From Gemmatimonadota bacterium (GTDB lineage Bacteria; Gemmatimonadota; Gemmatimonadetes; Gemmatimonadales; Gemmatimonadaceae), in the NCBI GenBank assembly GCA_041178365.1, contig JBEGVM010000148.1, positions 1 to 38,797 on the forward strand: DNA of 38,797 nucleotides, read 5' to 3'. Numbering within the stretch: position 1 is the stretch's first letter; every line of letters starts with the position of its first letter. This document shows positions 3,143 through 38,797 of the stretch, piece after piece. A program made the position numbers and the translations under genes. Below the pieces are notes generated by a model. That model saw only the letters and a list, made by a program, of their open reading frames with translations. It searched no databases and was not told the DNA's origin.

Positions 3143-3388
3143 TCAGATCAGCCTTTTCGGCTCCTTCTCCACCGCGTCATCGTGCTGCACGGTCCGGCTC
3201 TCACCCGGCGGGAGCGCCTCGCGCTCCGCGGGGGTGGCGAGCTCACGCTGGACGTCGTTCATGTTGCGCTTGAACTCGCGGATCCCCTTCCCGATCCCCC
3301 CCATCAGCTCCGGAACCTTCTTGGCCCCGAAGACGACCAGGATGACCAACGAGATGAGGATGAGCTCCCCTGGACCCAGACCGAACAT
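3143..3388 (-). CDS. tatA: Twin-arginine translocase subunit TatA/TatE
   Basis: MFGLGPGELILISLVILVVFGAKKVPELMGGIGKGIREFK (TM, FG hinge, amphipathic helix); AGGAGG RBS upstream. Confidence 0.95.
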   Translation of the reverse strand: MFGLGPGELILISLVILVVFGAKKVPELMGGIGKGIREFKRNMNDVQRELATPAEREALPPGESRTVQHDDAVEKEPKRLI

Positions 3389-6983: not shown

Positions 6984-8240
6984 TCAGCCGACGTGTGCGG
7001 GATGGCCCCCGACCCAGGTGCGCACACAGCGCCGATCGCCATACCAGTAGGGGATCTCTCGGTGATCCCGCAGGTCGAAGAGCGCGAGGTCGGCCTGGAA
7101 GCCTGGTGCGACCTGACCGATCTCGTGTGCGAGTCCCAGGGCTGCCGCCCCATTCACCGTGGCGGCGACGAAGGCCTCCGCCACATTCAGCCGGAGCTGG
7201 CTGACCCCGAGCGTGAGGACCAATGGGAAATTCACCGTCGGGCTCGTCCCGGGATTGAAGTCCGAGGCGAGTGCCACCGGGACGCCCGCCTCGATGAGCG
7301 CTCGCGCCGGCGCCTGCTTCGGACGCCCGAGAAAGAGCATCGTCCCCGGGAGGAGGGTGGCGATGGTCTGCGATGCCGCGAGCGCGCGGATCCCCTGCTC
7401 CGAGATCGCCGCGAGGTGATCCGCGCTCGTCGCCCCGAGCTCCGCGGCGAGCTCGGCGGCTGCCCCGTTCTCGAGCTCATCGGCGTGCAGCTTGAGCTGG
7501 AGACCCGCGGCCCGTGCCGCGGTCAGAATCCGACGCGTTTCCTGCGTCGTGTACACCCCAGGCTCACAGAACACATCGCAAAACCGGGCGAGCCCCTCCG
7601 CCGCGACGGCGGGGATCATCTCCTGCGTCACCACATCGAGGTACGCGTCACGGGTCGCGGCGCTCTCGCGATGCTCGAGCGGGACCTCATGCGCCCCGAG
7701 AAAGGTCGGGACGAGACGCAGCGGGAGATCGGACGCCAGCTGCCGGATCACCCGGAGGGTGGTGAGCTCCGCTTCGAGCGAGAGGCCGTAGCCGGACTTG
7801 ATCTCGACGGTGGTCGTCCCATACGAGGCGATGCGCCGGAGGCGCTCGGCGGCCAGCGTCCGCAGCGCCTCTGGGGTGCGGCTCCGCAGATCACGCACCG
7901 AGGCATGGATCCCCCCGCCCCGACGGGCGATCTCGAGATAGCCGATCCCCGCCGCGCGCATCTCCTGCTCCTCGTAGCGCGCCCGACCGAAGATCGCGTG
8001 CGTGTGCGAATCGACGAACCCGGGGGTGAGCACCCCGTTCCCACAGTCGATGACCTCGGCCGTGGGGTGGGCCGCGCGAAGCTCCGCATCAGGCGCGACG
8101 GCTTGGATGGTCCCGTCTGATGCGATGGCGACCCCGACGCGGTCCCGCACCGCGGCCTCGGACTGCTCCGGGCCACGACGAGCCCGCGCCGGACCGGCAC
8201 AGGTCACCACCTGCGATGCGTTGAGGAAGAGCTGGGTCAT
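6984..8240 (-). CDS. hutI: Imidazolonepropionase
   Basis: Start ATG 8240 ([10 protein letters not shown]), overlapping the radical SAM stop; PGFVDSHTH, EIKSGYGL, FLGAHEVP, DVFCEPG, KLHADEL, SADHL, ASDFNPG. Confidence 0.95.
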   Translation of the reverse strand: MTQLFLNASQVVTCAGPARARRGPEQSEAAVRDRVGVAIASDGTIQAVAPDAELRAAHPTAEVIDCGNGVLTPGFVDSHTHAIFGRARYEEQEMRAAGIGYLEIARRGGGIHASVRDLRSRTPEALRTLAAERLRRIASYGTTTVEIKSGYGLSLEAELTTLRVIRQLASDLPLRLVPTFLGAHEVPLEHRESAATRDAYLDVVTQEMIPAVAAEGLARFCDVFCEPGVYTTQETRRILTAARAAGLQLKLHADELENGAAAELAAELGATSADHLAAISEQGIRALAASQTIATLLPGTMLFLGRPKQAPARALIEAGVPVALASDFNPGTSPTVNFPLVLTLGVSQLRLNVAEAFVAATVNGAAALGLAHEIGQVAPGFQADLALFDLRDHREIPYWYGDRRCVRTWVGGHPAHVG

Positions 8241-9211
8241 GGGGAGGCCACCAGATCGTGGAAGCGGTTCAGTTGCAGCGGGGCCTGCGCCTCCCCGCGA
8301 CACGCATAGAAGCAGCGATCACAGGCGATCGGCTCGTACCCGCGATAATCGCGCCAATGGCCGTCGGTTGGGAAATCGGGACACCGACGGATCCCACCGT
8401 AAGGGTCGATATGTACGGTGTCCTGCCCGGACTGACAGGGGGCCTGCAACACACCGGCCACCCAGCGCGGGATCTGCGAGAGGTAGTGATCGGAGTTGGA
8501 GATAGTCCCACGACGGCGGCGCTTGAATGCCAGGAGCTCGGCGACGAGGGCTCCGACGCGCTGGTGATGGGCCGGGCCGAGCAGGTGATCGCGGTTCCCA
8601 TTCTTGAAGTCGGTGTAGACCGAGAGATTCACCCCGACGCGCATGGCCTCCGCCGCCCGTACGATCGGCATGATCTCGTCGAGGTTGTCGTCCTTGATCA
8701 CGGTGTTGAAGCGCACCGTCATCCCCTCGGATCGGATCCGCTCCGCCGTCGAGAGGATCTTCGCGGTGAGTCCCGGGATCCCTCGGGCCTGCGCATGTCG
8801 GTCGTCGAGATAGTCGAGCGAGATCCCGAACTGACCGATCCCCGCCTGCCAGAGCGATCGCGCGCGCTCGAGACTCAACATCGCCCCGTGCGTGAGCACC
8901 GTCATCCACACGGGGGAGACGGCCTGATGCACCCCATGCACGAGTTCCTCGAGGTCAGCTCGGAGGAGGGGCTCCCCGCCCGTCCAGGTGATCATCATCG
9001 GATCGAAGGCGACGGCGGCATCCACGAAGGAGCGCAGCTCCTTCGCCTTCATCTCCGAGGACGTCTTCCAGTAGTCACAGAACGGGCACCGGGCATTGCA
9101 CCGCATCGTGACCTCGAAGTTCACGAGGACGGGTCGCCGCTGCAGCCGCAGTCGCGCGTACTTCAGACTGAACGGCAGGAGGTGCCAGGGGCGGAAGCGT
9201 GCGCTCAGCAA
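8237..9211 (-). CDS. Radical SAM protein with C-terminal SPASM/twitch-like Cys cluster
   Basis: Probable TTG start at 9211 overlapping the hutU stop; CNARCPFC (CX3CX2C); TGGEPLLR; ISLD; C-terminal CQSG...[10 protein letters not shown]...CDRCFYAC. Confidence 0.88.
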
Positions 9212-10863
9212 TGGAGCGAGGGGAGTTGGATCCCTTCGCGAACGGCCGTCTCCCGCGCGATCTCGTATCCGGCATCGGCATGCCGAGCGACCCCGATGCC
9301 AGGGTCGTTGGTCAATACGCGCTGCAGGCGCTCGCGCATGGCGGGCGTCCCATCCGCCACGATCACCTGCCCCGCATGCAGCGAGTTGCCGATCCCCACG
9401 CCCCCGCCGTGGTGGAAGCTGACCCAGCTCGCCCCACTCGCCACGTTGAGCAAGGCATTGAGGATCGCCCAATCGGCGATCGCATCACTGCCATCCTTCA
9501 TCGCCTCGGTCTCACGGAAGGGCGAGGCTACGCTCCCGGTGTCGAGGTGATCGCGTCCGATCACGATCGGCGCGGCAACCTCCCCGCGCGCCACGAGATC
9601 GTTGAGCGCCATCCCGAACTTCGCGCGCGCCCCCTGCCCGAGCCAGCAGATGCGCGCCGGCAATCCTTGGAATTGGATGCGCTCGCGCGCGAGAGTGATC
9701 CACCGTTTCAGATGGTCGTCCTCGGGGAACATCTCGAGCACGAGCGCGTCGGTCCGGGCGATGTCCTTGGGGTCGCCCGAGAGCGCGGCCCACCGGAAGG
9801 GCCCCCTCCCCTCAGCGAAGAGGGGCCGGATGTACTCCGGCACGAAGCCGGGGATGTCAAAGGCGTTCGTGACCCCCGCATCGAGCGCGACGGTCCGGAT
9901 GTTGTTCCCGTAGTCAAAGGCGATCGCGCCGCGCCGCTGCATCGTGAGCATCGCCTCCACATGGACGACGGCGCTTTCGGTGGAGTGGCGCAGATAGGTC
10001 GCTGGATCGGCGACGCGCAGGGCATTTGCCGCGGCGAGGGTCATCCCGTGCGGCACATAGCCATTGAGCATGTCGTGGGCGGACGTCTGATCTGTGACCA
10101 CATCCGGGATGTCGCCTCGTGCGATGAGCGCCGGCAGCACGTCGGCTGCGTTCCCGACCAACCCGACGGAGATCCCGCGCTTCGCTGCCTGCGCCTCACG
10201 CACCCAGCGCATCGCCTCGTCGATATCGTGCGTGATCCGATCGCAGTAGCCGGTGTCGACGCGCTTCTGGCTCCGCGCGGGATCGACGTCGATTCCCAGG
10301 AAGGCGGCGTCATGCATGGTGGCCGCTAGGGGCTGCGCCCCGCCCATCCCACCGAGGCCCGCGGTGAGCACAAAGCGCCCTGCGAGCGACCCACCAAAGT
10401 GCTGGCGCGCTACCGCGCCGAAGGTCTCGTAGGTCCCCTGCACGATCCCCTGCGAGCCGATGTAGATCCACGACCCCGCCGTCATCTGACCATACATCAT
10501 GAGCCCCTTTCGCTCCATCTCGCGGAAGTAGTCCCAGGTGGCGAAACGGCCAACGAGGTTCGAGTTCGCGATCAGGACACGCGGGGCGTGCGCATGCGTC
10601 CGAAACACCGCCACGGGCTTCCCGCTCTGGACGAGCAGGGTCTCATCCGATTCCAACGCCCGCAAGGAACGGACGATATCGTCGAACGCCTGCCAAGTCC
10701 GCGCCGCGCGCCCCGTGCCCCCGTAGACCACCAGATCATCCGGCCGCTCGGCGACCTCCGGATCGAGGTTGTTCATGAGCATGCGCAGGGCGGCTTCCTG
10801 TTCCCAGCCCTTGCAGGAGATCTCGGGACCGCGCGGAGCGCGGACGGGACGTGGCTGTGACAT
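9205..10863 (-). CDS. hutU: Urocanate hydratase
   Basis: [73 protein letters not shown]. Confidence 0.97.
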
Positions 10864-10872
10864 AGGGAGAAG

Positions 10873-12405
10873 TTAGTGCGCGGGGGAGGCGAAGCGCCCG
10901 TCCGCGATCGCGCGAGCCAGGCGTTCCATGTCGGGGCCCAGGACCCGATCGGCGGTCAATGACGGGACCAATGTGCGAATCGCGCGGTGCGCCGCTTCGA
11001 CCGCTGGGCTCCCGCGGAGTGGCCGGCGGTAGTCGATGCCCTGGGCGGCGCACATCAGCTCGATAGCAAGCACCTGTTCCACATTGCGGAGCAGCCGCCG
11101 CAGCTTGGTCGCCGCCCCCATCGCCATCGGGACGACATCCTCCTTGCTCCCATCGGTCGGGATCGAGTCGACACTCGCCGGGTGCGCGAGCCCTTTGCAC
11201 TCGCTGGTGATCGCGGCGGCGGTCACCTGCGCCATCATGAACCCCGAGCTCACCCCGGCGGTGGGTGTGAGGAAGGGAGGGAGTCCCTCGTTGAGGTCGG
11301 GGTGCACGAGCCGGTCGATCCGTCGCTCACTCATGACCGCGAGATTGGTCATGACGATGGCGAGGAGATCCAACGCGAGCGCGACCGCCTGGCCGTGGAA
11401 GTTGCCGCCGGAGAGCATCGTCCCGTCATCGAAGACGAGGGGATTGTCCGTCGCCGCGTTGAGTTCCGTGGCGATCACCCGCTCGGCGAATTCGATCGCC
11501 TCGAGGATCGGTCCGTGCACCTGCGGCATGCAGCGGAGCGCGTAGGCATCCTGCACCCGCGTGTCCCCGTCGCGGTGCGACTCGCGAATCTCACTCCCCC
11601 GGAGCAGGTCGAGGAGGAGCGCCGCTGAGGTCTGCTGTCCCACCTGTCCTCTCGCGGCATGGATGCGGGGGTCGAAGGCCGTCGGCGTCCCGAGGAGCGC
11701 CTCGAGCGACATCGCACCTGCCACATGCGCGGTGACCCAGGCCCGACGAGCCGCCGTCACCGCCAGTGCTGCGACGGCGGTGTGCGCTTGGGTGCCGTTG
11801 ATGAGGGCGAGCCCCTCCTTCGGACCGAGGGTCATCGGCGCGAGGTGGTGCGCCGCGAGCACCTCCGCCGCCGACCCGCGCCCAGCCGGATGGTTCAGCT
11901 CTCCCTCTCCGATGAGGGCAAGGGCGAGATGCGCGAGTGGGGCCAGATCCCCGCTCGCGCCGACCGACCCCTGCTCCGGGATATCGGGCCAGCACCGTGC
12001 ATTGAGCATCCCACAGAGCAACTCGGCGAGCTCCGGACGCGCCCCGCTGAACCCCTTCGCCAGCACGTTCGCACGTAAGAGCATCATGGCGCGTACCTCG
12101 GCCTCAGGGAGTCTCGGCCCCACCCCCGCGGCATGGCTGCGCACGAGATTCACCTGCAGTTGCGCGAGCTGATCCGCAGGGATGGCGACGTCGGAGAGCT
12201 TCCCGAACCCCGTGGTGACGCCGTAGACCGCCTCTCCACGCGCGGCGATGCCCTCCACCACGGTGCGGGTCGCCCGCATCCGAGCCACCGCCGTGGGAGC
12301 GATGGTGACCTGACGTCCCACCGTGGCGACCTCAACGACATCGGTGATGGCGAGGGAGGCCCCGTCGAGGATCAGCGGGAGCGTCGGCATGGGGTGCGCC
12401 GTCAT
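10873..12405 (-). CDS. hutH: Histidine ammonia-lyase
   Basis: Start ATG 12405 overlaps the upstream TGA; YGVTTGFG; LVRSHA (His-specific SH); MIO-forming GSVGASGDLAPL; QDAYALRC; SGGNFHG. Confidence 0.95.
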   Translation of the reverse strand: MTAHPMPTLPLILDGASLAITDVVEVATVGRQVTIAPTAVARMRATRTVVEGIAARGEAVYGVTTGFGKLSDVAIPADQLAQLQVNLVRSHAAGVGPRLPEAEVRAMMLLRANVLAKGFSGARPELAELLCGMLNARCWPDIPEQGSVGASGDLAPLAHLALALIGEGELNHPAGRGSAAEVLAAHHLAPMTLGPKEGLALINGTQAHTAVAALAVTAARRAWVTAHVAGAMSLEALLGTPTAFDPRIHAARGQVGQQTSAALLLDLLRGSEIRESHRDGDTRVQDAYALRCMPQVHGPILEAIEFAERVIATELNAATDNPLVFDDGTMLSGGNFHGQAVALALDLLAIVMTNLAVMSERRIDRLVHPDLNEGLPPFLTPTAGVSSGFMMAQVTAAAITSECKGLAHPASVDSIPTDGSKEDVVPMAMGAATKLRRLLRNVEQVLAIELMCAAQGIDYRRPLRGSPAVEAAHRAIRTLVPSLTADRVLGPDMERLARAIADGRFASPAH

Positions 12406-15400
12406 GGGGTACGGAGTCCTGCTCCCGGGGGGCGGAACGTCTGGCGATCGTAGTCGAGCTTGATCTCCGGTTGCGCCTTGAGGGAGATGAAGAAGGTGAA
12501 GGCGAAATTCCCGTTCGGGGCCTGCGTGAAGCCAAAGACCGCGCGCCAATCGTGCAGCTCCCGCTGCAACGACACCACCTGGCTGGCGAACTCACTGCGC
12601 ACCACGTCGTAGGTCGTGCTCCACGACCCCGCCCACCGCGGCGTGAGATTGAAGGTCGTGCGGATCCCGACGGAGGTAGTCGGCGGCACCCGGAAGAAGG
12701 TGGCCCCGGAGGGGCCGGCCGTCTGCGCGACCTGCGTCGCCGCCGAGCGCTCCGCCTGGAAGACGCAGGTATCGTACTGCGGGAAGCCGAGCAGGGCCTG
12801 GCACTGCAGGGTAGGATCGAAATCGACGATGCGCCCACCGACTGGCGGACGTTGGCGCTGCGAGCTCACCGTGAAAGCGGCGGTGAATCCCTGCCCCGTC
12901 GGGATCTCTTGGATCCCCCCGCGCGTCCGTGTGCCGGTGGTGGCCCCCATGCCGTTGAGCGAGCCCGCCGCGGAGATCAGCCCGCCCCCCATGGGGCTCG
13001 TCGATGCCATCGGTGATGGACCGGTCCGCGACGCCCCCATCGAGATGCCGAAGAGCTTCGCGATCGCTTGGACGATGCTCGAGTTGGCATCGAGGTTGAA
13101 GGAAGCGCGCACCGCCTCGCGGTAGGGATCGAAGCTGGCCGAGTCGCTGAGGAGATCACCCTGGAAGAGCGAGTAGTCGACCCCGAGATCGAACCCCGGG
13201 AGGAGATCGGAGCGGAAGGTGTAGCCAAAGCGGTCGGTCGCGAACCCGGTCTTCCCAGTCGCACGCCGTCGCTCGAAATCGTACGCGATCCCGGTGAACT
13301 GGATCGTCGCGACCTTCACCTTCTTCCCGCCATCCGCCGAGAGATCCGTGGAGTCCTGCGGCACGCGGAGCTTGGCCTCGATATTCGTGGTGAGGCCGAG
13401 CGACACGCGATTCTGCGCGAGGGAGCCGAGGTAGCCGGCGCGCGTGCGGCCTGTGGCGGCGAGGAAGGCATCGGGGACCGATGCCTCCGGGGAGAACGAG
13501 TAACTCAGCGTCGGCGAGATCGCGTGCCGGAACCGCTGCACGGGGCCGAAGCCAGGCAAGAGGGCGTAGATGGTGGGCGAGACCCCGACGCCGTAGGACA
13601 ACCGCTTGCGCTGCGTGACCCACGCCCCATTGGAACGAAAGGTCCGCACGGCGAATCCGCCGGGATCGACGTTCGACGCCGTCACGGAGGGGGTCAGGTT
13701 CCAGGTCCCCTGCAAAAACTGTGGTAGCCCGATGGAGATGTCGGCATCGAGGCTCGACTCATACGTCTGCTGGAAGACGCGATCGACGCGCACACTGCTG
13801 TCCCGCACATCGCGGAGCGTGATGATCTGTGGGTAGTCGAAGACCTGCTGATTGAAGCGGAGCCCGCTCTGGACCTGGAAGTCGAAGATCTTGAATGGGG
13901 TGCCGATCGACAGGGTCGTCGTCCCTGTATTCCGCTTGAGGCGGACCGAGTCGAGTCCGGCCGTCGTCTGGAGATAGCGATAGGCGAAGTCGCCGGTCGC
14001 ATCGAGGTTGTAACTGTTCCGCTGTCCGAACTGCAGACTGGGATTCAGGACGAACCACCGGCCCAGCTCGAGTGGCTTCGACGCGATGTTGAGTGAGGGA
14101 AAGTCCTGATCGACCTGGTCGCGACCCGGATACTGCCGACGGGTGCCACCCAGGTTCACCGAGAAGGGCCCTTGCTGCCGCACCAGGTTCATCTGGGAGG
14201 CGATCGTCGCCACGGCGGCGAGGGGATTGATGATCGTCTGCCGCTGGATCTGCGTGCTGGTGACGTAATTGAGGTTGGTGTTGATGCGCGTCCGAGAGGA
14301 GAACTCCTGGGCATGCGACCAACTGACGGCGGTGTTCTGGTTCCCCGTGCTCAGCGTGTTCTGCGAGAGCGCGAGGGTGCCGGACATGAAGCGATCGAGC
14401 CAGCGGTAGCGGATCTCCCCATTGAACCGGGTCCACCCCGGGTCCTGCGCCGTCGCCCGCGCGCTGGAGCGCCAGTCCATGGAGACCTGTGCGTCGATGA
14501 AGTCGTTGATCGCGAAGTAGTACCCTAGGTTCTCCACCGTGCGCCGATACGTCGGAGAATTACGCACCAACTCGGCGAATCCCATGCGCGGGGGGATGAT
14601 CCCCGAGCGGCGCCCGGAGCGGATATCCTGGAAGATGAAGGGGAGCCACATCACCGGCACATCTTGGACGTAGAGGATCGCCGGGCGCGCGACGAGCGTG
14701 CTCCCACTCACCCGCTTCAATTCCTTCGCGAGGAAGTGATAGTGCGGGACACTATCGAGGCAGGAGGTGATGACCCCGTCGCGGCCGTAGACGGTATTGC
14801 GATCCGCCGCGGTGTCGGAGGCGAACGCCGCGCGATGCGCCATCACGCGCCACTCCTCTCCGGCCTTCGCGATGGTACTGAAGTCGCGGGTGCGGCCTTC
14901 CCGGCGTTCCACATCGTAGACCAACTCCTCCTGCCCGATGATGTCATCACCACGCGCGGGATCCCGCATGACGATCGTGTCCCCGCGGGCGGTGACCCGC
15001 TTGATGCTATCGCTGTAGGCGATCTGATCCGCCACGAGGAGCGTGGAATCGCGCTGCACCGCCGCGCGCGCGGTGGAATCCCGCTGCAACGTCATGACGC
15101 GCCCGGTCGCCTCGAAGCGCATCTGCCCCGCTTGGTATCGCACCGCCGTATAGCCACGCCGCGCCATCAGGGCACGAATGACGCTGTCGTCAGGAGCCCA
15201 GGAGACGAGGACCCCGGCGGCAGGGGCGCGAGATACGGAGTCGACGCCGGGACGCCCCTGAGGTGATGGTGAGGGCATGGGCATCCCCGTTCGCATCGGC
15301 TCCTGCCCCGCCGGGCGCGGCCGCACCGGCTGTGCCGCGAGCCCGGTCGGCACCAGCCCGCCGACGACGACCACGAGCGCCATGACGGCGCCGATCCGGC

Positions 15401-16142
15401 GCATCCGACGCCGATAGACGAGCCAGGAGACGATGATACTGACCTCGTACAGACCGTAGAGCGGCACCGCCATCAGGGCGGTCATGATCAGCAGATCCCC
15501 CGGGGTCACGACCGCAGAGATCACAAAACTCGCTGCCATCGCGTAGCGCCGGAACTTCGTCATCGCCATCGGCGTGACCAGCCCGATCGCGGTCAACGCC
15601 AAGACCACGACCGGCAGCTGCGAGATCGCGCCAAAGGCCAAGCAGGTCGTGACCATGAAGCCGAAGACATCGCGCGCCGTGAAGAGGGGCTGAAGCGAGG
15701 CGGACTGCATCCCCACCAGCACCTTGAAGATGATCGGCAGCACGAAGCGCCACGCGACATACACCCCCGTCCCGAAGAGGGCCGTCGCCCCCAGGAGCAC
15801 CGGGAGCATGAGCCGCTTCTCGTGGGGATGGAGCGCGGGTGAGAGGAAAGACCAGACGTGATACCCGACGACCGGCAGCGAGCAGACGAGGCCCACGGCG
15901 AAGGCGACTTTGAGACTGATCGAGAAAGGGTCGAGGGGATGCGTGACGACGAGCTTCCCCTCCGGGAGGTAGGGCATCACGGGGGCGGCCAGCCACCCGA
16001 TCACATCGAACTCAGGGCGCATGACGATGACCAGCGCCCCCATCATGCAGAGCAGGAGCGCTCCCACGCTCCACATCAGGCGATACCGCAGCTCCTCGAG
16101 ATGATCGAGGAAGGGCATCTCCGCGGCGGGTCCGGATGTCAT
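12402..16142 (-). CDS. tatC-lptD: In-frame fusion of TatC (about 16142-15405), an internal signal peptide and an LptD-type LPS assembly outer-membrane protein (15404-12402)
   Basis: TatC part: MPFLDHLEELRYRL, YHVWSFLSPALHPHEKR, VTPGD, LYEVSI. Then, with no stop, MRRIGAVMALVVVVGGLVPTGLAA-QP. LptD part: ITSCLDSVPHYHF, RPAILYVQDVPVMWLPF, RRSGIIPP, GYYFAINDFID, C-terminal LQRELHDW..F.F.ISLK. The ORF-track extension to 16607 overlaps cpoB and was discarded. Confidence 0.88.
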   Translation of the reverse strand: MTSGPAAEMPFLDHLEELRYRLMWSVGALLLCMMGALVIVMRPEFDVIGWLAAPVMPYLPEGKLVVTHPLDPFSISLKVAFAVGLVCSLPVVGYHVWSFLSPALHPHEKRLMLPVLLGATALFGTGVYVAWRFVLPIIFKVLVGMQSASLQPLFTARDVFGFMVTTCLAFGAISQLPVVVLALTAIGLVTPMAMTKFRRYAMAASFVISAVVTPGDLLIMTALMAVPLYGLYEVSIIVSWLVYRRRMRRIGAVMALVVVVGGLVPTGLAAQPVRPRPAGQEPMRTGMPMPSPSPQGRPGVDSVSRAPAAGVLVSWAPDDSVIRALMARRGYTAVRYQAGQMRFEATGRVMTLQRDSTARAAVQRDSTLLVADQIAYSDSIKRVTARGDTIVMRDPARGDDIIGQEELVYDVERREGRTRDFSTIAKAGEEWRVMAHRAAFASDTAADRNTVYGRDGVITSCLDSVPHYHFLAKELKRVSGSTLVARPAILYVQDVPVMWLPFIFQDIRSGRRSGIIPPRMGFAELVRNSPTYRRTVENLGYYFAINDFIDAQVSMDWRSSARATAQDPGWTRFNGEIRYRWLDRFMSGTLALSQNTLSTGNQNTAVSWSHAQEFSSRTRINTNLNYVTSTQIQRQTIINPLAAVATIASQMNLVRQQGPFSVNLGGTRRQYPGRDQVDQDFPSLNIASKPLELGRWFVLNPSLQFGQRNSYNLDATGDFAYRYLQTTAGLDSVRLKRNTGTTTLSIGTPFKIFDFQVQSGLRFNQQVFDYPQIITLRDVRDSSVRVDRVFQQTYESSLDADISIGLPQFLQGTWNLTPSVTASNVDPGGFAVRTFRSNGAWVTQRKRLSYGVGVSPTIYALLPGFGPVQRFRHAISPTLSYSFSPEASVPDAFLAATGRTRAGYLGSLAQNRVSLGLTTNIEAKLRVPQDSTDLSADGGKKVKVATIQFTGIAYDFERRRATGKTGFATDRFGYTFRSDLLPGFDLGVDYSLFQGDLLSDSASFDPYREAVRASFNLDANSSIVQAIAKLFGISMGASRTGPSPMASTSPMGGGLISAAGSLNGMGATTGTRTRGGIQEIPTGQGFTAAFTVSSQRQRPPVGGRIVDFDPTLQCQALLGFPQYDTCVFQAERSAATQVAQTAGPSGATFFRVPPTTSVGIRTTFNLTPRWAGSWSTTYDVVRSEFASQVVSLQRELHDWRAVFGFTQAPNGNFAFTFFISLKAQPEIKLDYDRQTFRPPGAGLRTP

Positions 16143-16179
16143 GCGCGCACCATGCGGCGAAGGCCTCGACGACGGCGCG

Positions 16180-17028
16180 TCAGGGGCGCCGCGTCGTCCC
16201 GACGAACTGCTCGGAGAGGACCGCCGCCTCTGAGCGCGGATAGCGCTGGATGATCTGCCGATAGAGGACCCGAGCCGGCTCGGTCTTCCCCGCGATGCGC
16301 AGCGCCGTCGCGCGCTTGTACAGCGCCGTGGGGGCGCGCTCAGAGTTCGGGTAGCGGACCGCCACCTGCTCGTAGAGCGAGTCGGCCGCCGTCGCATTCC
16401 CCTCCGCCGTGAAGGCCTCAGCCATCCCGTACAGCGCATCGGCCGCGAGGTCCGACCGCGGGTACTGCGCCAGCAGCGCACCGAACGCGCTCCGAGCGGA
16501 CGCGCCGCTCCCTCGTCGCAGTTGATCCTGCCCCATCTGATACAACTGCGCTGGCCCCGGTGTCGCGGACGGCGCGGTCGGCGTACGTGCCGAATCGCGC
16601 CCGCCACTCATCGCCCCAGCGGATCCCGCCGCTCGCTCGCCGGCATCCGACTCGAGGTCGGCGCGGAGTTCCTGGATGCGCCGCTGCGACTGCCCGGTGA
16701 GCTCTTGGATCGCGATGAGCTGCGCGCGGACGTTCTGGAGGTCCTCTCGGACATCCCCACGCAACCGCACGACGGTGGCGCTCATGTTGCGCACGGTGTC
16801 GTTCGTCGCGCGTAATAGCGTCGCGATCTGCAGGAGCGTGGTATCCATCGCCGCCGCCCGCAGGGAGTCCCGCAGACGCTCGGCCGTCTGCAGGCGACGG
16901 AATTCGTCGCGGACCGCGACGACATCGCCTTGCACGACCCGAAGGTCCTGCTGGGTCGCAAGGCAGGCGCCGGCCGTCAGGATGACGACCGGCGCCCAGA
17001 ACAGCCGGAGGGAAGACCGCAGGGTCAC
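16180..17028 (-). CDS. cpoB: Tol-Pal system protein CpoB/YbgF (coiled coil plus TPR), predicted lipoprotein
   Basis: GTG 17028 overlaps the pal stop; lipobox-like TAGA-C; coiled coil; TPRs QYPRSDLAADALY, RYPNSERAPTALYK, QRYPRSEAA; directly downstream of pal. Confidence 0.88.
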   Translation of the reverse strand: MTLRSSLRLFWAPVVILTAGACLATQQDLRVVQGDVVAVRDEFRRLQTAERLRDSLRAAAMDTTLLQIATLLRATNDTVRNMSATVVRLRGDVREDLQNVRAQLIAIQELTGQSQRRIQELRADLESDAGERAAGSAGAMSGGRDSARTPTAPSATPGPAQLYQMGQDQLRRGSGASARSAFGALLAQYPRSDLAADALYGMAEAFTAEGNATAADSLYEQVAVRYPNSERAPTALYKRATALRIAGKTEPARVLYRQIIQRYPRSEAAVLSEQFVGTTRRP

Positions 17029-17657
17029 CGCGGCGGGACCCCACCCGCGATGATCTCGAACTCGTCGCGACGGTTCTGCGCCCACGCCGCCTCGGTCGAC
17101 TCGACGTTCAACGGACGCTCCTCACCGAAGGAGACCACGGCGATCCGCTCATCGGCGATCCCGAGGTCGACGAGGTAGCGCTTGGCGGCGGCCGCACGGC
17201 GCATGCCGAGCGCGATGTTGTACTCGTCAGAGCCCCGCTCATCGGTATGCCCGGCGACGCGGATCCGCACCGACGGATTCGCTTGGAGGAAGGCCAGCTT
17301 CGCGTCGAGGGTCGCCCGAGCTTCCGCGCGCAGATCCGACTGGTCGTAGTCGAAGAAGATCATCTCCGTCAGGACCGCCCGCGGGTCCGATGTCGAGAGA
17401 TCCCGGCCGGCGACGGTCCCGGTCGCACCGGCGAGCCGATCGCCTACTGCTGAGGTGGCGGCGCCCGCAGCCGGCGCGGCAGGGACGGGGGCGGCGGGCG
17501 CTGGCGCGGGAGCCACAGGGGCCGCGGTCGGCGCCGCCGGCGAGGCCACCGCAGGGGCCGACTCAGGCGTCGGTTCGGTCTTCGGCGTCACACCCTTGCA
17601 CGCCGCAAGGGAGAAGAGCGCGACAGCGACCACCGGAAGAGTGCGACGAGCGGTCAT
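17025..17657 (-). CDS. pal: Peptidoglycan-associated lipoprotein Pal
   Basis: ATG 17657 with GGAG RBS; lipobox LAAC; Pro/Ala linker; OmpA-C domain IFFDYDQSDL...GHTDERGSDEYNIALGMRRA...SFGEERP...NRRDEF. Confidence 0.95.
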   Translation of the reverse strand: MTARRTLPVVAVALFSLAACKGVTPKTEPTPESAPAVASPAAPTAAPVAPAPAPAAPVPAAPAAGAATSAVGDRLAGATGTVAGRDLSTSDPRAVLTEMIFFDYDQSDLRAEARATLDAKLAFLQANPSVRIRVAGHTDERGSDEYNIALGMRRAAAAKRYLVDLGIADERIAVVSFGEERPLNVESTEAAWAQNRRDEFEIIAGGVPPR

Positions 17658-17704
17658 GGGAGCCTCTCCAAATCGAGGAGTGAGAAGGGGGAAAGATAAC
17701 CGAG

Positions 17705-19012
17705 TCAGGGGGTGCTCAGGAGCCGCGGGGACCATGCCCCCATGCGAGTGGCCACCCCTCGGGTGAGTTGCCGCACCCGCCCCGACTCTATATCCAGTAC
17801 CCACAACTGCCGCGTTCCGGTCCGCGACGAGGTGAAGACGAGGTGACGTCCATCTGGTGCCCACGACGGATCCTCGTTGATCCCCTCGGTCGTGTACTGC
17901 CGGACGGTGCGATCCCGTAGGCTGATCGTGGCGATCTGGAACCGCCCATCGATCTGCGTGGAGAAGGCGACGAATCGCCCATCAGGGGACCAAGCCGGAT
18001 CGGCGCGATAGGGGGCGTCGGTCAGCGCGGTCGAGGTCAGCAGCTCCGGGTTCGCCCCATCGGCATCGGTGAGATAGATCTCGTTGCGTCCCAGGCGGGA
18101 GGTCGTGAACGCGATCCGCCGGCCATCGGGCGCAAAGGTCGGCTGTGCGTTGGTCGATCCGCGACCCACGGTGACGCGCAGGGGGGGCTCCTCCCACGCG
18201 CCGACCGGCACGAGGTACAGGTCGGTCCCCGACTCCCCCGCCGCGAAGGCCAGCCACTTCCCATCCGGAGAGAAGGCCGGCGAGAGGCTGAGGGGAGCGG
18301 AGGTCCGCACCCGCTGCTCCTCACCTGAGGTCAGATCCCGCACCACGACGGAGGTCCCGTCATCCCGCATCCGAGCAAAGGCGATCGATCGACCGTCCGG
18401 ATGCCAGGCGGGCCCGAGCGCCGCCCCCACCCCAGCGACCATCTGTTCGTTCACCCCATCGCTATCGATCTGCCAGAGCGCGCCACCTCGGACGAAGAGG
18501 ACACGAGTTGCCGCAATCCCCGAGGTCCCCGTGACCCACGCCTCGACCCGATCCGCGATCGCGTGCACCGCGAGACGCCAAGCGGGGGAATATCGCGGCC
18601 CTGGCAACGGGAATCGCTGGGCCTCCTGCGCCTGTCCCGCCACGACATCGTGGAGGGTGACCAGCACGCTCCCATCGGCCTGTAGCACGAGCTGCAACAC
18701 CCCCGCCGCACCCAGTCGCGCATACAGCGGATAGTTCAGTCGGCCGGTGGGGGGAACCACACCGGAATCGGGAGAGATGACCGTCAGCCGATGCCCGAAC
18801 TCCAGATCACGCGCGATGATGCGCCGCACCGAATCCGCATCCACGCCACGCACGGGGAGGAGATAGATCCCAGGCTGCGTACCCGGGGTGTAGGTGAGAC
18901 CAATCCGAACGCCGGGTTCCTGTGCGACGACGGTCTGCGGCGCAGCACTGACGCCCAGAAGCGCCAGCAGCGCGACCATCCGCAGGGCGCGCCCCCACGT
19001 TCCACCCCTCAT
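17705..19012 (-). CDS. tolB: TolB beta-propeller protein
   Basis: Signal peptide; PD40 repeats (PAWHPDG, PAFSPDG, PTFAPDG, PAWSPDG, PSWAPDG); lies between tolA and pal. Confidence 0.92.
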   Translation of the reverse strand: MRGGTWGRALRMVALLALLGVSAAPQTVVAQEPGVRIGLTYTPGTQPGIYLLPVRGVDADSVRRIIARDLEFGHRLTVISPDSGVVPPTGRLNYPLYARLGAAGVLQLVLQADGSVLVTLHDVVAGQAQEAQRFPLPGPRYSPAWRLAVHAIADRVEAWVTGTSGIAATRVLFVRGGALWQIDSDGVNEQMVAGVGAALGPAWHPDGRSIAFARMRDDGTSVVVRDLTSGEEQRVRTSAPLSLSPAFSPDGKWLAFAAGESGTDLYLVPVGAWEEPPLRVTVGRGSTNAQPTFAPDGRRIAFTTSRLGRNEIYLTDADGANPELLTSTALTDAPYRADPAWSPDGRFVAFSTQIDGRFQIATISLRDRTVRQYTTEGINEDPSWAPDGRHLVFTSSRTGTRQLWVLDIESGRVRQLTRGVATRMGAWSPRLLSTP

Positions 19013-19719
19013 CGCAGCCGTGCCGGGTCGAAGCGAAAGGTCACCGGCAGGATGTCATCACCAAACCCGGAGGGTAGCGGACCAAAGCGTCCCCTCGCCG
19101 CCTCGACCGCCCCTTCCGCCTCCACGTCGAACGCGAAGTTCCCACTCCGCTCCACGAATCGGAATCCCGACACACTGCCGTCTCGGTGGATGAAGAAAAG
19201 CACCTCGGCGGTCAGCGCCCCCGGGTTGCGTGGCCGAAAGTTCAACGCGATCTGTCGCACGATGTTCTGTAGATAACCGGGGAACGGGAACTGGATCCCC
19301 TCGGTGCGGACCATCGCGACATCGGACCCAGTCCCACCGACAGCGCCACCGCCGGCCGTCGGAGCGCGCGACACCGGCGCCGCCTTCGTTGGCGCTGCTG
19401 TCGACGGCGTGGCGCGCGTCGGCGTCTTCGCGGTCGGGGCCTTGATCGGCGCGGTCTTGCCGGGATCGGTGCGCTCAGGGCGGGACGGCGTCGGGGCAAC
19501 CTCCGCGGGCCGCGCGGGCTCGGGAGCTGCTTCGCGCACGACCCCAGCCGCCCGCTCACCCGCCGGTGCGGCGACGAGGGTCACGGCGTACATCGTGGGG
19601 AGCGCGGGGGGCGCCGAGGTGCGCACGACGAGCAACGCGAACCCGGCGAGCAGGTGCACGACCGCCGAGATCGCCAAAGGACCACGCAGCTCCGGAGCCC
19701 CGCGGAGCGCATGACTCAC
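19009..19719 (-). CDS. tolA: TolA/TonB-family energy transducer (short)
   Basis: TM with SAVVH (SxxxH) motif; Pro/Thr/Ala-rich linker; TonB_C-like domain (FFIHRDGSV...SGNFAFD..A..AV); tol operon context. Confidence 0.8.
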   Translation of the reverse strand: MSHALRGAPELRGPLAISAVVHLLAGFALLVVRTSAPPALPTMYAVTLVAAPAGERAAGVVREAAPEPARPAEVAPTPSRPERTDPGKTAPIKAPTAKTPTRATPSTAAPTKAAPVSRAPTAGGGAVGGTGSDVAMVRTEGIQFPFPGYLQNIVRQIALNFRPRNPGALTAEVLFFIHRDGSVSGFRFVERSGNFAFDVEAEGAVEAARGRFGPLPSGFGDDILPVTFRFDPARLR

Positions 19720-20132
19720 TTCTCGACGTCCTCCGGCTCCGTCACGAGCCCGACATCACCGACCCCCGAGGCTCGCATGATCGCCAGGACCCGGACCACC
19801 TGGCCGTAGTCCGCCCGCTGATCGGCGCGGAGATAGACGCCCCCCTGCCCCGACTTCTCCGCCAAGGCGCGGAACATCCCCCGGAACTCCCGGAGCGAGA
19901 CGCGCACGTCGTCGAGATAGATGCGCCCATCCCGGGTGATGGACACCACGAGGGGCTGCTTCGCATCCAGCGGACGCGCTTCGGCCCGCGGGAGTGAGAC
20001 ATCCACGCCCCCCTGCATCATCGGGGCCGTGATCATGAAGATGATCATCAGGAGCATCATCACATCGATCAGCGAGACGACGTTGATCTCCGCATTGAGG
20101 GGCGTCCGCTCCCCGCGGGCGCGGCGTCGCAT
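19716..20132 (-). CDS. tolR: TolR/ExbD
   Basis: EINVVSLIDVMMLLMIIFMITAPMM; LRADQRADYGQVV. Confidence 0.9.
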   Translation of the reverse strand: MRRRARGERTPLNAEINVVSLIDVMMLLMIIFMITAPMMQGGVDVSLPRAEARPLDAKQPLVVSITRDGRIYLDDVRVSLREFRGMFRALAEKSGQGGVYLRADQRADYGQVVRVLAIMRASGVGDVGLVTEPEDVEK

Positions 20133-20133
20133 C

Positions 20134-20841
20134 CTAGAGCCGTCCCTCGCGCGCGATGAGCGCGATCACTTCCGTGCCGAAGGCGTCGAGCTCGCCATCG
20201 AGGCGGTTCAGTCGTGCGGCAAAGATGTTGTACCCGAAGTAGGCGGGGATGGCGACGGCGAGGGCGAAGGCCGTCGCGACGAGCGCTTCGGCCACACCCG
20301 GCGCGACCGCCGCAAGGTTCCCCGACCCGCCGCGCGCGACGCCGAGGAACGCGCTGATCACGCCGAGCACCGTGCCGAGCAGTCCGAGGAGCGGGCTCAC
20401 CGAGCCGACCATCGCCAGAAAGGGGATGTAGGTCCCCAACCGATCACGCTCGGTGTTGGTCTCCGCATCCAGCACGAGGCGCAGCGCCTCGACCTGCGAG
20501 GCCGAGAGCGCATCACTCCGCTGCCCAGCTCCCCCCGTCCGCAGATCATCGAGGAACCGGACCGCCCGTTGCAGGATGCGCGGGTGCGCGCCCTCCTCCC
20601 CGCGCACGAGGAGGAGCCCCTCCGCTTCACTGAACGAGCGACACCCGCTGAACTCCGCCTGGAACTCCCGACCCGCGCGCTCCACTGCTCGGAAAGTGCG
20701 CCACTTGGAGAGCATCACAGCCCACGAGAGGAGGGAGAGCACGCCGAGGACGGCGAGGACGGTGAGGGTGACGCCTGAGCTCGCGAGAATCAGCTCGATC
20801 GGCGACGAGGGGACGGCTGCCGTCATTTGCGCAATGATCAC
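20134..20841 (-). CDS. tolQ: TolQ/ExbB proton channel
   Basis: SPLLGLLGTVLGVISAF; VAPGVAEALVATAFALAVAIPA. Confidence 0.9.
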   Translation of the reverse strand: MIIAQMTAAVPSSPIELILASSGVTLTVLAVLGVLSLLSWAVMLSKWRTFRAVERAGREFQAEFSGCRSFSEAEGLLLVRGEEGAHPRILQRAVRFLDDLRTGGAGQRSDALSASQVEALRLVLDAETNTERDRLGTYIPFLAMVGSVSPLLGLLGTVLGVISAFLGVARGGSGNLAAVAPGVAEALVATAFALAVAIPAYFGYNIFAARLNRLDGELDAFGTEVIALIAREGRL

Positions 20842-23528: not shown

Positions 23529-24635
23529 CTAATCGCCGCCGCCCACGGGCGCCCGTCGCATCAGGACCGCATCCTCGGGAGGTGCCGTGTAGTACCCCCG
23601 CCGCCGGCCCACGGGGAGGAATCCCTGGCGACGGTAGAGGGTCTGGGCGGCGATGTTGCTCGCGCGGACCTCGAGGAAGACGGTGTCCCCGCCGTCGGCA
23701 TCGAGTGCTCGGAGGACCTCAGCGAGCAGGGCATCCCCTATCCCCTGACGACGCCGAGCGGGATGCACCGCGAGGTTCAGCAGCTCCGCCTCCGGCCCAA
23801 CCCGCCGGAGGATGGCGTATCCCACGACCTCGCTGCCCACCTCTGCAACAACGCACCGATCGGTCGGCGAGCTGATCGTCTCGGCGAGCATCGCCGCACT
23901 CCAGGGATCGGAGAAGCTGGCCTGCTCGATGGCATGGATGGCCGTGAGATCGTTCAGGTCCGCCGTGCGCGCGCGACAGAGTGACGCACGCAACGGACGC
24001 CCATGCGCCGCCTCCCACTTCACCTGCGCCTCCGCCAATCGCCCATAGAGCGGTTCCCATCCCGGCAGGTCAACCGGCCCGAGGGTCCGCGCGAGCGAGA
24101 GCACCCCCACCGCCTCTCGCGCATGGGGCATGGCTTCGTGGGCTGTGTCGCACGCCCCTGCGGGGAGACAGCCGAGCTGCTCCACCGTGGTGATGCGGCC
24201 CTGCGCATCGCGGTGGAGGACCGCGACGTAATACTCCCCGCGGAGCGCGTCGAGACGCACCGGCGTGGTCCCTGACGGTGTCGGAGTGAGCGCGAGCGAC
24301 GGGACGGCGAAGAGGGGAATCTCGCGGCCCTCGGCCAGCCCCTTGGCGATCGCGCCGACGACGCGGAGCGCGGTGAAGCTGCCTGGCCCCGCGCCGACGA
24401 GGATCCCCTGCAGGTCAGGGAGCGCGACGCCGGCACGCTCGAGCGTGGCGAGCACGGCGGGGAAGAAGCGCTCCTCCTCCATGCTCCGCATCTCAACCGT
24501 CTCCTCGACGACGAGCGCACCCCCCTGCAGGACTGCGACGGTGCCGGCGCCCGTCGCGGCATCCATGACGAGAACCGTGCCGTCGAGCGGATGGCGCGCG
24601 ACCTCAGGCGCTGGAGCGATGGCGTCCGACCTCAC
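23529..24635 (-). CDS. tsaB-rimI: Fusion of TsaB (t6A tRNA modification) and a RimI-type GNAT N-acetyltransferase
   Basis: TsaB: VLVMDAA, GAGPGSFTALRV..AIAKGLA, LDALRGEYY. RimI: IEQASFSDPWS, LLNLAVHPARRRQGIG, FLEVRASN..AQTLY, RRGYY...EDAVLM. No stop at the junction (about 23990). Confidence 0.88.
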   Translation of the reverse strand: MRSDAIAPAPEVARHPLDGTVLVMDAATGAGTVAVLQGGALVVEETVEMRSMEEERFFPAVLATLERAGVALPDLQGILVGAGPGSFTALRVVGAIAKGLAEGREIPLFAVPSLALTPTPSGTTPVRLDALRGEYYVAVLHRDAQGRITTVEQLGCLPAGACDTAHEAMPHAREAVGVLSLARTLGPVDLPGWEPLYGRLAEAQVKWEAAHGRPLRASLCRARTADLNDLTAIHAIEQASFSDPWSAAMLAETISSPTDRCVVAEVGSEVVGYAILRRVGPEAELLNLAVHPARRRQGIGDALLAEVLRALDADGGDTVFLEVRASNIAAQTLYRRQGFLPVGRRRGYYTAPPEDAVLMRRAPVGGGD

Positions 24636-31244: not shown

Positions 31245-34457
<3,213 letters not shown>

Positions 34458-35848: not shown

Positions 35849-36804
35849 CAGGTCGGGGGTTGGAGCCGCGCCGTCCCAGGGAGGGTGCGGAAGTACTCAA
35901 TGGTACGCAGTAACCCCTCGCGGAGTTGCACGGAGGGCTCCCAGCCGAGGATGGCCTTGGCCCGCGTGATATCGGGCTGCCGCACCTTGGGATCATCAGC
36001 TGGTAGCGGCAGGGATTCAATCGTCGAGGAGGAACCCGTGAGTTCGATCACCAGCTCGGCGAGCTCGCGGACCGTGAACTCATTCGGGTTGCCGATGTTG
36101 ACGGGCATCCGTTCCTGGCTCATGAAGAGCCGGTAGATCCCCTCCACCTCGTCGGAGACATAGCAGAAGGAGCGCGTCTGCGACCCGTCGCCGTAGACGG
36201 AGAGGGGCTCGCCGCAGAGTGCCTGCACGATGAAATTCGAGACGACACGCCCATCCCCCGGCCGCATCCGCGTCCCGTAGGTGTTGAAGATCCGGACGAT
36301 TCGCGTGTCTACCCCCTGCGCCCGATGGTAGGCCATCGTCATCGCCTCAGCGAAGCGCTTCGCCTCGTCATAGCACCCACGCGGCCCGATGGGGTTCACA
36401 TTCCCCCAGTAGGATTCCGGCTGCGGATGCACGAGGGGATCGCCATAGACCTCGGAGGTCGAGGCGAGGAGGAACCGGGCCTGCTTGGCGAGCGCGAGCC
36501 CCAGCGCGTTGTGCGTCCCGAGCGAGCCGACCTTCAGCGTCTGGATCGGGAGCTCGAGATAATCGACGGGACTGGCCGGCGAGGCGAAGTGCAGCACCCC
36601 GTCAAGATGACCGGGGACGTAGGTATACTCGGAGATATTGTGACGGATGAAGGAGAAGCGCTCGTGCCCCATGAGGTGCGCGATGTTCTCCGGTCGGCCG
36701 GTCAGGAAGTTGTCGAGCCCGATGACCTCATGGCCGTCCGCGAGGAAGCGATCGGCGAGATGGCTGCCGAGGAAGCCCGCGGCCCCGGTGATGAGGACTC
36801 TCAC
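35848..36804 (-). CDS. uxs: UDP-glucuronate decarboxylase (UDP-xylose synthase)
   Basis: [64 protein letters not shown]. Confidence 0.9.
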
Positions 36805-38108
36805 TCAGCCCCCCGCCCGATCGAGCGGTAGGTGAAGCCCAAGGCCTGCATCTTCGCGGGGTCGTAGAGGTTGCGGCCGTCCACGACCACCGGGGTCTTG
36901 AGCGCTGCCTTCACCCGCGCGAAGTCGGGGAAGCGGTACTCGTTCCACTCGGTGACGATGACCAGCGCATCGGCCCCCTCCGCCGCGGCGTAGTTCGACG
37001 GGGCGTAGGTGATGCGGTCCCCGATCCGCCGCTCGGTCTCATGCATCGCTGCGGGATCGTGGGCCACGACCGTCGCCCCAGCGGCGAGCAGCTCGTCGAT
37101 CAACACCAGCGCCGGTGATTCGCGCATGTCGTCGGTGTTCGCCTTGAAGGCGAGCCCCCAGAGCGCGATGCGCTTCCCGCGCACCGAGCCACCGAGCGCC
37201 GCGGTCACCTTGGCGAAGAGCCGATGCTTCTGCCGCTCGTTGGCCTCTTCGACGGCCTTGAGCACCCCCATCGGGGCCCCGCGCTCCTCGGAGGTGCGCA
37301 CGAGCGCCTTCACATCCTTCGGGAAGCAGGAGCCACCGTAGCCGGGCCCCGGGAAGAGGAAGGCGGGACCGATCCGACCATCGCTCCCGATCCCCTTTCG
37401 CACGAGATCGACGTTCGCCCCGACGCGCTCGCAGAGGTTCGCGATCTCATTCATGAAGGAGATGCGGGTCGCGAGCATCGCATTGGCGGCATACTTGGTC
37501 ATCTCCGCCGACGGGATATCCATGAAGATGATCGGCTTCCCGGTGCGCACGAAGGGGGCATAGAGCTCCGCCATCCGCTCGCGCGCGAAGTCGCTCTCCA
37601 CCCCGATGACCACGCGATCGGGCTTCATGAAGTCGTCCACCGCGGCCCCCTCCTTCAGGAACTCGGGGTTGGAGCACATGTGATATGGGACCTTCGCATG
37701 TGGACGGATCGCCTCGGCGACCTTCTGCGCCGTCCCGACCGGCACCGTCGACTTGGTGACGACCACCACCTCGCGAGCCGCGTGCTGCCCGATCTGATCG
37801 GCGACGGCGAGCACATGCTTGAGATCGGCGGAACCATCTTCGTCAGGCGGGGTCCCTACGGCGATGAAGATCACATCGGCGGCGGCGATCGCGGCCGGGA
37901 TGTCGGTGGTGAAGGCCAAACGCCCGGCGACCCGATTGCGATGGACATACTCCTCGAGCCCTGGCTCGTAGATCGGGAGGATATCCTGATTGAGTCCCTC
38001 GATCTTCTTGGCGTCGACGTCGCCGCAGATGACGTCATTCCCCGTCTCCGCGAGACAGGCGCCGACGACCAGGCCAACATAGCCAGTCCCAACCACCGTC
38101 ACCTTCAT
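36801..38108 (-). CDS. ugd: UDP-glucose 6-dehydrogenase
   Basis: [28 protein letters not shown], catalytic [10 protein letters not shown]. Confidence 0.93.
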
Positions 38109-38112
38109 ACCA

Positions 38113-38797
38113 TCACTCCGTCGCAGCGCCCATGACCGGGCGCGATGAGGTCAGCGTCACGACGCGGGCACGCAGGGAGCCAAGCGTCGCCATGACATTC
38201 CGTGTATCGATGATCAACGGCGCATGCGTTCCCACCTGCCGGTAATCCACTTCGGTGTGATCGGTGATGATCACGACGGCATCCACCGCTCCAAGCAGCT
38301 TCGGCGTGAGCGGCACGCTCGCCATCGCATGCCCATCTTCTTGGAAGCGCACCACATGCGGATCGTGGTACTGCACCCGCGCGCCTCGCTCTTCCAACCG
38401 GCGCATCACGTCGAGCGCGGGACTCTCCCGCATGTCGTCGATGTCACGCTTGTACGCCACGCCGAGGACGAGGACCGCGCTCCCCTTCACCGCCTTCCCT
38501 TCATCGTTCAACGCCCAGGCCACCTTCTCGACCACGAAGTCGGGCATCGATGAATTGACCTCACTCGCCAGATCGATGAACCGCGTCTTGTAGTTGAGCG
38601 AGCGCATCTTCCAGGCGAGATAATGCGGGTCGAGGGGGATGCAGTGCCCCCCGATCCCAGGGCCCGGCGTGAACTTCATGAAGCCGAAGGGCTTGGTCGC
38701 CGCCGCCTCGATCACTTCCCAGATATCGACCCCGAGGCGATCGCAGACGATCGCCATCTCATTCACGAGCCCGATGTTCACCGAACGGAAGGTGTTC
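38113..38797 (-). CDS. UDP-N-acetylhexosamine 6-dehydrogenase (WbpA/WecC family), 5' end truncated by the window edge
   Basis: Frame open to the window end (...[13 protein letters not shown]); [24 protein letters not shown]; [15 protein letters not shown]. Confidence 0.85.

Follow-up and report, generated by a model that had tools for sequence, protein, structure and literature searches.

The freshwater Gemmatimonadota-like bacterium of assembly GCA_041178365.1 carries, on the reverse strand of contig JBEGVM010000148.1 (38,797 nucleotides, all of which were analyzed and are here called the window), a single open reading frame (ORF) in which the inner-membrane protein TatC continues in frame into the outer-membrane protein LptD. 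Based on the sequence of the junction, we consider it likely that signal peptidase I would cut the chain between A270 and Q271 (A270^Q271), giving a TatC with a seventh transmembrane helix (TM7) and a normal mature LptD. Translation of 12402-16142 gave 1246 amino acids with a single stop, at the end, and Pfam profiles matched TatC at residues 13-227 (E 1.7e-53) and LptD_2 at residues 484-956 (E 1.8e-31). Together with the TIGR matches described below, this bears out the original prediction of one ORF in which a complete TatC runs into LptD, and the three motifs that it had named were all present: HLEELR (14-19), WSFLSPALHPHE (97-108) and YRRR-MRRIGAVMALVVVVGGLVPTGLAA followed by QP (243-272). 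The frame upstream of ATG 16142 is open as far as GTG 16607, which overlaps cpoB, and the start was therefore taken as ATG 16142 or as ATG 16118, the latter corresponding to M9, which is invariant in the alignment. A single copy each of TatC and LptD was found in the genome, whose assembly is fragmented (222 contigs) and 84% complete. The named database homologues of the fused protein are labelled Gemmatimonadota.

The junction as a predicted internal signal peptide

The junction (Table 1) had been read in the original prediction as an internal signal peptide that acts as TM7 and is cut by signal peptidase I. Supporting that reading, a basic cluster, a 10-residue hydrophobic stretch and x-x-[AGS]^Q 5-11 residues later were present in all 37 fused loci (three of which, at contig ends, were classed by hand), with Ala at -1 in 34 of them, and the Q271 column was nearly invariant in a MAFFT alignment (A1). 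The same signature marks N-termini in this genome: in a crude gene set, x-x-[AGS]Q after a hydrophobic stretch was found in 104 of 224 N-terminal cases versus 46 of 959 internal ones. Under a signal profile trained on 92 N-terminal sites of the same genome, the junction (RRRMRR / IGAVMALVVV / L-A-A^Q) scored 15.8, compared with a median of 15.5 for the training sites, and ranked first among the 12285 internal Gln sites of the genome. Median scores were 13.3 for the fused junctions and 13.1 for the N-termini of 72 separate LptD proteins, 70 of which have Gln after the cut; TatC-internal control windows (n = 111) had a median of 0.8 and a maximum of 6.1. When whole chains were scored, the best signal lay at the junction in 48 of 49 fused database proteins. 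Compared with other members of its small clade the junction has only 59-64% identity, and is thus drifting, yet AQ is retained; that the +1 Gln is kept while its surroundings drift is best explained by this position becoming a free N-terminus. The N-in/C-out orientation inferred for TM7 follows from the basic cluster and from the cytoplasmic location of the TatC C-terminus. Two genes for signal peptidase I are present in the genome, which, judging from these N-terminal signatures, seems to follow the Q-rule that was published as Bacteroidetes-only.

A gene for a lipoprotein homologous to the Bacteroidota type II glutaminyl cyclase was also noted (C172; L071:1465-2445, reverse strand; E 1e-58 to 6qro), and the type I glutaminyl cyclase profile (PF05096) had no match in the 84% complete genome. 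A Tat-type internal signal was considered and rejected. The Tat consensus before the h-region is S/T-R-R-x-F-L-K; at this junction the RR pair is present without that consensus, and it is absent from other fused junctions, such as KRQGKAG and KRGAARMLG.

Several points weigh against an internal signal cut at A270^Q271. The profile was trained on sites followed by Gln, so that Gln is favored by construction (the MAFFT column is unaffected by this), the scored relatives are kin and hence not independent, and a few junctions score low (2.6, 5.7 and 7.5). In young fusions, part of the motif could be a legacy of the separate gene. In the AlphaFold model a single helix (218-263), with falling confidence and no hairpin, runs from TM6 through the junction, and the TM7 topology is thus not supported by the model, which neither shows nor refutes it. 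Lastly, M247 would yield a textbook 24-residue signal peptide, and it is kept in six of the eight proteins of the window's clade.

The observations on M247 bear on an alternative in which a second translation start at its codon, ATG 15404, makes LptD, the long product being a TatC whose tail is dispensable or degraded. The original prediction had argued against such a restart from the lack of a Shine-Dalgarno (SD) sequence before this ATG. The lack is real (duplex energy to a short anti-SD motif of -1.7 kcal/mol, versus -2.8 and -3.2 at the two candidate tatC starts), but it is a weak argument: the tatC starts are themselves nearly SD-less, so the absence of an SD does not exclude restart. A better argument is that relatives have lost the start codon. 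The M247 codon is replaced by ATC (Ile) in two members of the same clade, no ATG, GTG or TTG precedes the h-region in 29 of the 37 fused loci (one is present in the other eight), and in 18 of the 37 there is none up to the third h-region residue. In addition, M247 is probably not the old lptD start, as it precedes the IG motif, which is part of the TatC tail where the genes are separate. We therefore regard internal initiation as quite improbable.

A further alternative is that the chain stays uncut, with LptD in the outer membrane tied to TatC through TM7 and the linker and so bridging the envelope. The earlier statement that an intact fusion could not work as both proteins was overstated in this respect, because TM7 and the periplasmic domain of LptD are separated by a Pro/Arg-rich linker of ~44 low-confidence residues, which permits a tether on geometry; by our own estimate, linker and jellyroll could span the periplasm. 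Against this, small residues at -3/-1 and Gln at +1 have been retained in every fused lineage sampled, among them an old family-wide one, the linker is not lengthened in fused genes (medians of 44 residues fused versus 47 separate in family f1, and 51 versus 45 in family f2), and there are reversions to separate genes in f2. A permanent tether thus appears to be very unlikely.

Under the preferred reading, cleavage at A270^Q271, the signal recognition particle (SRP)/Sec route would insert TatC TM1-6 during synthesis, and the basic tail of TatC and the h-region would then form an N-in seventh helix that starts Sec/SecA export of the remaining 976 residues. Signal peptidase I would cut at A270^Q271, the type II glutaminyl-cyclase-like lipoprotein would cap Q271 as pyroglutamate, and mature LptD would reach the beta-barrel assembly machinery (BAM) via periplasmic chaperones, while TatC would retain TM7. 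Given that the start of lptD encodes a cleavable signal, the fusion would leave the products nearly unchanged; it is probably a tolerated state, rather than one built for regulation, and it recurs and reverts.

Integrity of the junction and of the two halves

Misassembly, or else a read-through mutation private to this genome in a gene that is broken, was also considered, and the fragmented state of the assembly speaks for the former. However, the junction is bridged without a gap by contigs from two further studies: X6 covers 15294-15621 with one substitution, and X7, from a third study, covers 15327-15498 and is identical. The contig X1 spans 14800-16300 with no differences and may be the source of the assembly itself. 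The RNA run X12 contains only 15454-15602, which lies outside the junction, and a search of a plasmid collection with the junction gave no match. The original prediction had also named, as a refuting case, that all relatives have separate genes and this one a private read-through; instead, the fusion is shared, at the identical place, by four more members of this small clade (G016, G043, G046 and G059). Both halves are under purifying selection, with dN/dS values relative to two clade members of 0.08-0.13 for TatC and 0.04-0.05 for LptD, which argues against a broken gene. An assembly error was rejected on the basis of X6, X7 and the sharing of the fusion by the clade, and we give an artefact or a private mutation practically no weight.

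The TatC half is complete-looking, as had been claimed, in that the profile match is full-length, the model has the six-helix fold and the key residues are kept. It scored 164 bits against TIGR00945 (tatC; cut-off 132.7), PF00902 was matched over its whole length (1-208 of 208), and PDB TatC entries matched the fused protein with E 2e-39. An AlphaFold model of residues 1-295 matched the solved TatC structures 9dzz and 4b4a, with TM-scores to the target of 0.80-0.85. Residues H14, E17, R19, F99, E108, P214 and E233 were invariant in all 53 fused rows. In the accessible part of a Tat review (PMC13673990), the signal-binding Phe and Glu of E. coli TatC are given as F94 and E103. The N-terminal HLxELR of the window's TatC, and its F99 and E108, align to PDB TatC. 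The Glu of the FE(L/M)P motif in TM4 is absent, and Gln175 stands at this position, which we take to be the equivalent of E. coli E170. Gln is also found there in 38 of 91 separate relatives, indicating a lineage trait that is unrelated to the fusion.

A model of residues 271-1246 had a predicted template modelling score (pTM) of only 0.51 and gave a full-length Foldseek match to LptDE structures, with all of the top 30 ranks being LptDE. The LptD_2 match also exceeded the Pfam cut-off. On this model the N-terminal all-beta region of LptD is read as a putative periplasmic beta-jellyroll. The genome also contains an LptC-like gene, and profiles for LptE and PF03968 had no match in its 84% complete assembly.

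Distribution and history of the fusion

A survey of TatC lengths and of co-occurrence with LptD, as had been suggested in the original prediction, was run. Among the 7994 best candidates that were scored, 54 TatC homologues had 685-2181 residues, and 50 of these were TatC plus LptD_2 (including the window's own entry), three were Lnt-TatC and one was a double TatC. In the window's own genus a TatC match was found in 50 of 55 genomes, and six of the 50 were fused, five with an open frame of >1200 codons and one (G016) in which the frame continues past the signal until the contig stops. The sister family f2 differs: of 139 genomes with a match, the TatC frame had >=1000 codons in 109, which were counted as fused, 600-999 in six and fewer in 24, and the short frames inspected included two fusions truncated where their contig stops and several TatC copies not followed by lptD. 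A search across the order gave 407 matches, of which 150 were listed; none of the counts given here derives from it, and no claim is based on its genome G296. Outside the order, none of 42 genomes had a long frame, and an lptD match followed tatC in the 19 loci fetched. The adjacency of tatC and lptD is retained across the phylum, and separate loci have a 4-nt (A/G)TGA stop/start overlap in 55 of 91 cases (32 of 36 in the genus).

In order to follow the history of the fusion, a FastTree phylogeny of concatenated TatC and LptD was used (144 hand-picked rows, 53 of them fused, with separate f2 loci over-sampled). The fused or separate state changed at least 14 times on this tree. When it was rooted on other classes, fused rows fell into at least six groups. 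Four of these were the window's clade, G053, family f2, in which several separate rows were nested, and genus g14, whose fusions reflect one or two events; the other two came from other orders, and one of them rests on a long-branch join flagged by the tree tool. The window's clade was sister to five separate genomes (support 100), and holding it together with G053 was rejected (approximately unbiased test p 5e-5; 22 rows, quick tree). It is therefore likely that the same fusion arose several times in Gemmatimonadota, with the fusion in the window being young and of separate origin within a genus that is mostly unfused. The separate TatC proteins of this genus end in RR....IG(G/K)xxx-stop, and the fused junction reads RRRMRR-IG-h-region. 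Comparison of the two sequences suggests as a likely origin a short deletion that would have removed the tatC stop, the overlapping GTG start of lptD and LptD's own n-region, with the basic tail of TatC taking over as n-region.

A number of additional TatC arrangements were observed. Possible frameshifts lie in or beside the lptD signal region of L112 (in G462, with a G-rich run) and L036 (in G032); if these are assembly errors, there would be fewer f2 reversions. TatC copies without lptD behind occur in some f2 and g14 genomes (L038, L099-L101, L108, L113, L114 and L156), and G110 and G075 have both a stand-alone and a fused TatC. Lnt is fused ahead of TatC in P0052-P0054 (800-900 amino acids, on contigs of 95-355 kb), which is a different natural TatC fusion.

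Similar layouts in other genes of the genome

The three sites ranked next in the genome-wide scoring of internal signals all lay at domain boundaries. C175 (L158:385-2391, reverse strand) joins a TetR repressor to a TolC-type channel via an internal A^Q signal. It is a single frame past the junction in 49 of 55 genomes of the genus (a count that leaves out G051 as uncertain from a tally of 50), and among the best 120 of 298 homologues, the best signal score lay at the boundary in all 119 examined, with Gln in 117; cleavage there would leave a membrane-held repressor. C68 (L157:202-1917, forward strand) joins a PepSY_TM membrane protein to a beta-lactamase-family serine hydrolase, again through an internal A^Q signal; an uninterrupted full-length frame is present in 23 of the 55 genomes of the genus, many others having separate genes, and A^Q was present in 12 of 12 junctions inspected. 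C108 (L159:1729-3363, forward strand) joins a major facilitator superfamily (MFS) transporter to an adhesin E-like exported protein, a fusion observed in this genome only. The close relatives G043 and G059 carry TAG at the junction, and C108 is either a very young fusion or an error.

These fusions are of different ages and have unrelated partners in a common layout, which points to a general, tolerated polyprotein layout and favors tolerance over a purpose specific to Tat and lipopolysaccharide (LPS). The alternative on this point, which is compatible with cleavage, is that the fusion was selected for synthesis of TatC and LptD at 1:1 or for a functional TM7. It is fixed in most of f2 and has been gained several times, tatC and lptD have stayed neighbors across the phylum, and a single TatA/B/E gene was found, so that an extra helix could matter. 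Conversely, the separate genes already overlap, there are several reversions in f2, TM7 is conserved in hydrophobicity only, and unrelated pairs are fused likewise, one of them private to this genome. A selected purpose is accordingly doubtful, although less so than a tether or an internal start. The original suggestion that the fusion couples Tat capacity to LPS assembly is weakened by the same facts: the overlap in most unfused pairs of the genus, the repeated changes of state on the tree and the like fusion of unrelated pairs.

We lean, with reservations, towards a broader interpretation in which Gemmatimonadota would use signal peptidase I as a general polyprotein processor. Overlapping operon genes would fuse when the downstream gene starts with an A^Q signal, resulting in heritable one-gene, two-compartment products (TatC-LptD, TetR-TolC, PepSY-lactamase and MFS-adhesin E). 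LptD, an essential outer-membrane barrel, would in this way be routed behind a co-translationally inserted TatC, whose TM7 may join the Tat complex.

Neighboring genes

The coordinates of the fused gene, its parts and the neighbors discussed here are given in Table 1. Several other features of the window were noted. A radical SAM gene at 8237-9472 (reverse strand) sits among histidine-utilization genes (hutH, hutU, radical SAM, hutI). At 23529-24635 (reverse strand), after tsaE, a single ORF combines a TsaB/TsaD-like domain with a GNAT acetyltransferase (likely TsaB-RimI). SecA (31245-34457, reverse strand, 1070 amino acids) has a DEAD-like match at 7-567 to a profile of 290 positions; this is too long for the nested cross-linking domain and suggests a possible insertion in SecA. 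At 36801-38781 (reverse strand), genes for an NAD-dependent epimerase and a BamD-like lipoprotein come after two tandem UDP-glucose/GDP-mannose dehydrogenase genes.

Table 1. Positions in the window of the fused gene, its parts and selected neighbors (pLDDT, predicted local distance difference test)
Feature	Position	Strand	Basis or remark
tatC-lptD fused ORF	12402..16142	-	1246 amino acids from ATG 16142; alternative start ATG 16118
TatC domain, residues 1-243, six TM helices	15414..16142	-	Pfam/TIGR, PDB matches, model
Basic cluster RRRMRR, 244-249	15396..15413	-	TatC cytoplasmic tail, likely serving as n-region
h-region IGAVMALVVVV, 250-260	15363..15395	-	Predicted TM7; last hydrophobic peak of the chain
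c-region GGLVPTGLAA and Q271	15330..15362	-	Predicted signal peptidase I cut A270^Q271
Pro/Arg-rich low-confidence linker, 272-315	15198..15329	-	pLDDT <50 for residues 1-40 of the mature protein
LptD N-terminal all-beta region, ~334-506	14625..15143	-	Strands in model, LptD structure match, weak NF002997 match at 449-565
LptD beta-barrel, ~514-1221	12480..14603	-	Pfam LptD_2; Foldseek 8h1s, E 1e-25
tolQ-tolR-tolA-like-tolB-pal-cpoB cluster, upstream	16180..20841	-	Pfam/TIGR profile matches
hutH	10873..12405	-	Has an ATG in frame that overlaps the stop codon of tatC-lptD (ATGA)
tatA/B/E-family gene	3227..3379	-	Sole one found in the genome

Comparison with known systems

To our knowledge, polyproteins with parts bound for different membranes are mainly viral, apart from one bacterial case within a single complex. 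That case is FbcH of Bradyrhizobium japonicum (Thony-Meyer, James and Hennecke, 1991), reportedly a cytochrome b/c1 precursor with an internal signal that is processed into two proteins. The likeness is that one gene reportedly encodes a polytopic inner-membrane protein, then an internal signal, and gives two products. The ORF described here, with two complete proteins, a signal at their boundary, predicted cleavage and no conserved internal start, has the FbcH-type layout. However, FbcH joins subunits of one inner-membrane complex, whereas TatC and LptD belong to unrelated pathways and different membranes, and the part that would be released is a beta-barrel. The closest comparison within the phylum is with the 91 separate tatC/lptD loci, which have the same order, the same proteins and the same A^Q signal ending, but differ from the fused form in having a stop and an overlapping start between the genes and a TatC of six helices.

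Internal cutting of a polytopic protein by a type I signal peptidase is described for Staphylococcus aureus LtaS, which is cut by SpsB after its last helix with release of a large exported domain, according to the accessible part of PMC12260438; there the cut inactivates one enzyme, whereas cleavage of TatC-LptD would give two working proteins. In Bacteroidetes, cyclization of the Gln that signal peptidase I exposes stabilizes exported proteins (accessible parts of PMC5837995 and PMC10653852). The Q-rule with PgQC described there, Gln after most signal peptidase I sites, resembles what we see, and a lipoprotein homologue of the type II cyclase is present here too. The rule was published as Bacteroidetes-specific, and Gemmatimonadota are absent from the main texts of these two papers as far as these were accessible; here it would be extended from sequence alone. 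The haloarchaeal 14-TM TatC, consisting of two fused TatC, is likewise a natural TatC fusion, but it remains a single membrane protein with no exported partner (PMC13673990, accessible part). In the same portion of that 2026 review the TatC fusions are haloarchaeal only, and neither LptD nor Gemmatimonadota is mentioned; the accessible part of a TatC survey (PMC3827258) does not mention fusion, and in that of a BAM review (PMC13067283) the term 'internal signal' means something else. Our literature search, whose coverage left out most subscription journals and supplements, found no report of a TatC-LptD fusion.

Implications

What the window contributes is a young, separate origin of the fusion in a mostly unfused genus, together with four such fusions in one genome. 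If the predicted cleavage is true, bacteria make polyproteins whose parts reach different membranes. The fused gene would then be a natural test substrate for three questions: how efficient signal peptidase I is, if it acts at all, on an internal helix that follows six others, whether an outer-membrane barrel can pass from SRP-type insertion to SecA export within a single chain, and whether a seventh helix is tolerated or used by TatC. There are also consequences for annotation, as the named database entries of the fused protein are called TatC or 'hypothetical', which hides LptD, and predictors of N-terminal signals overlook exported proteins that lie behind internal ones. The repeated gains and losses show that fusion of operon genes is cheap when the second gene starts with a cleavable signal.

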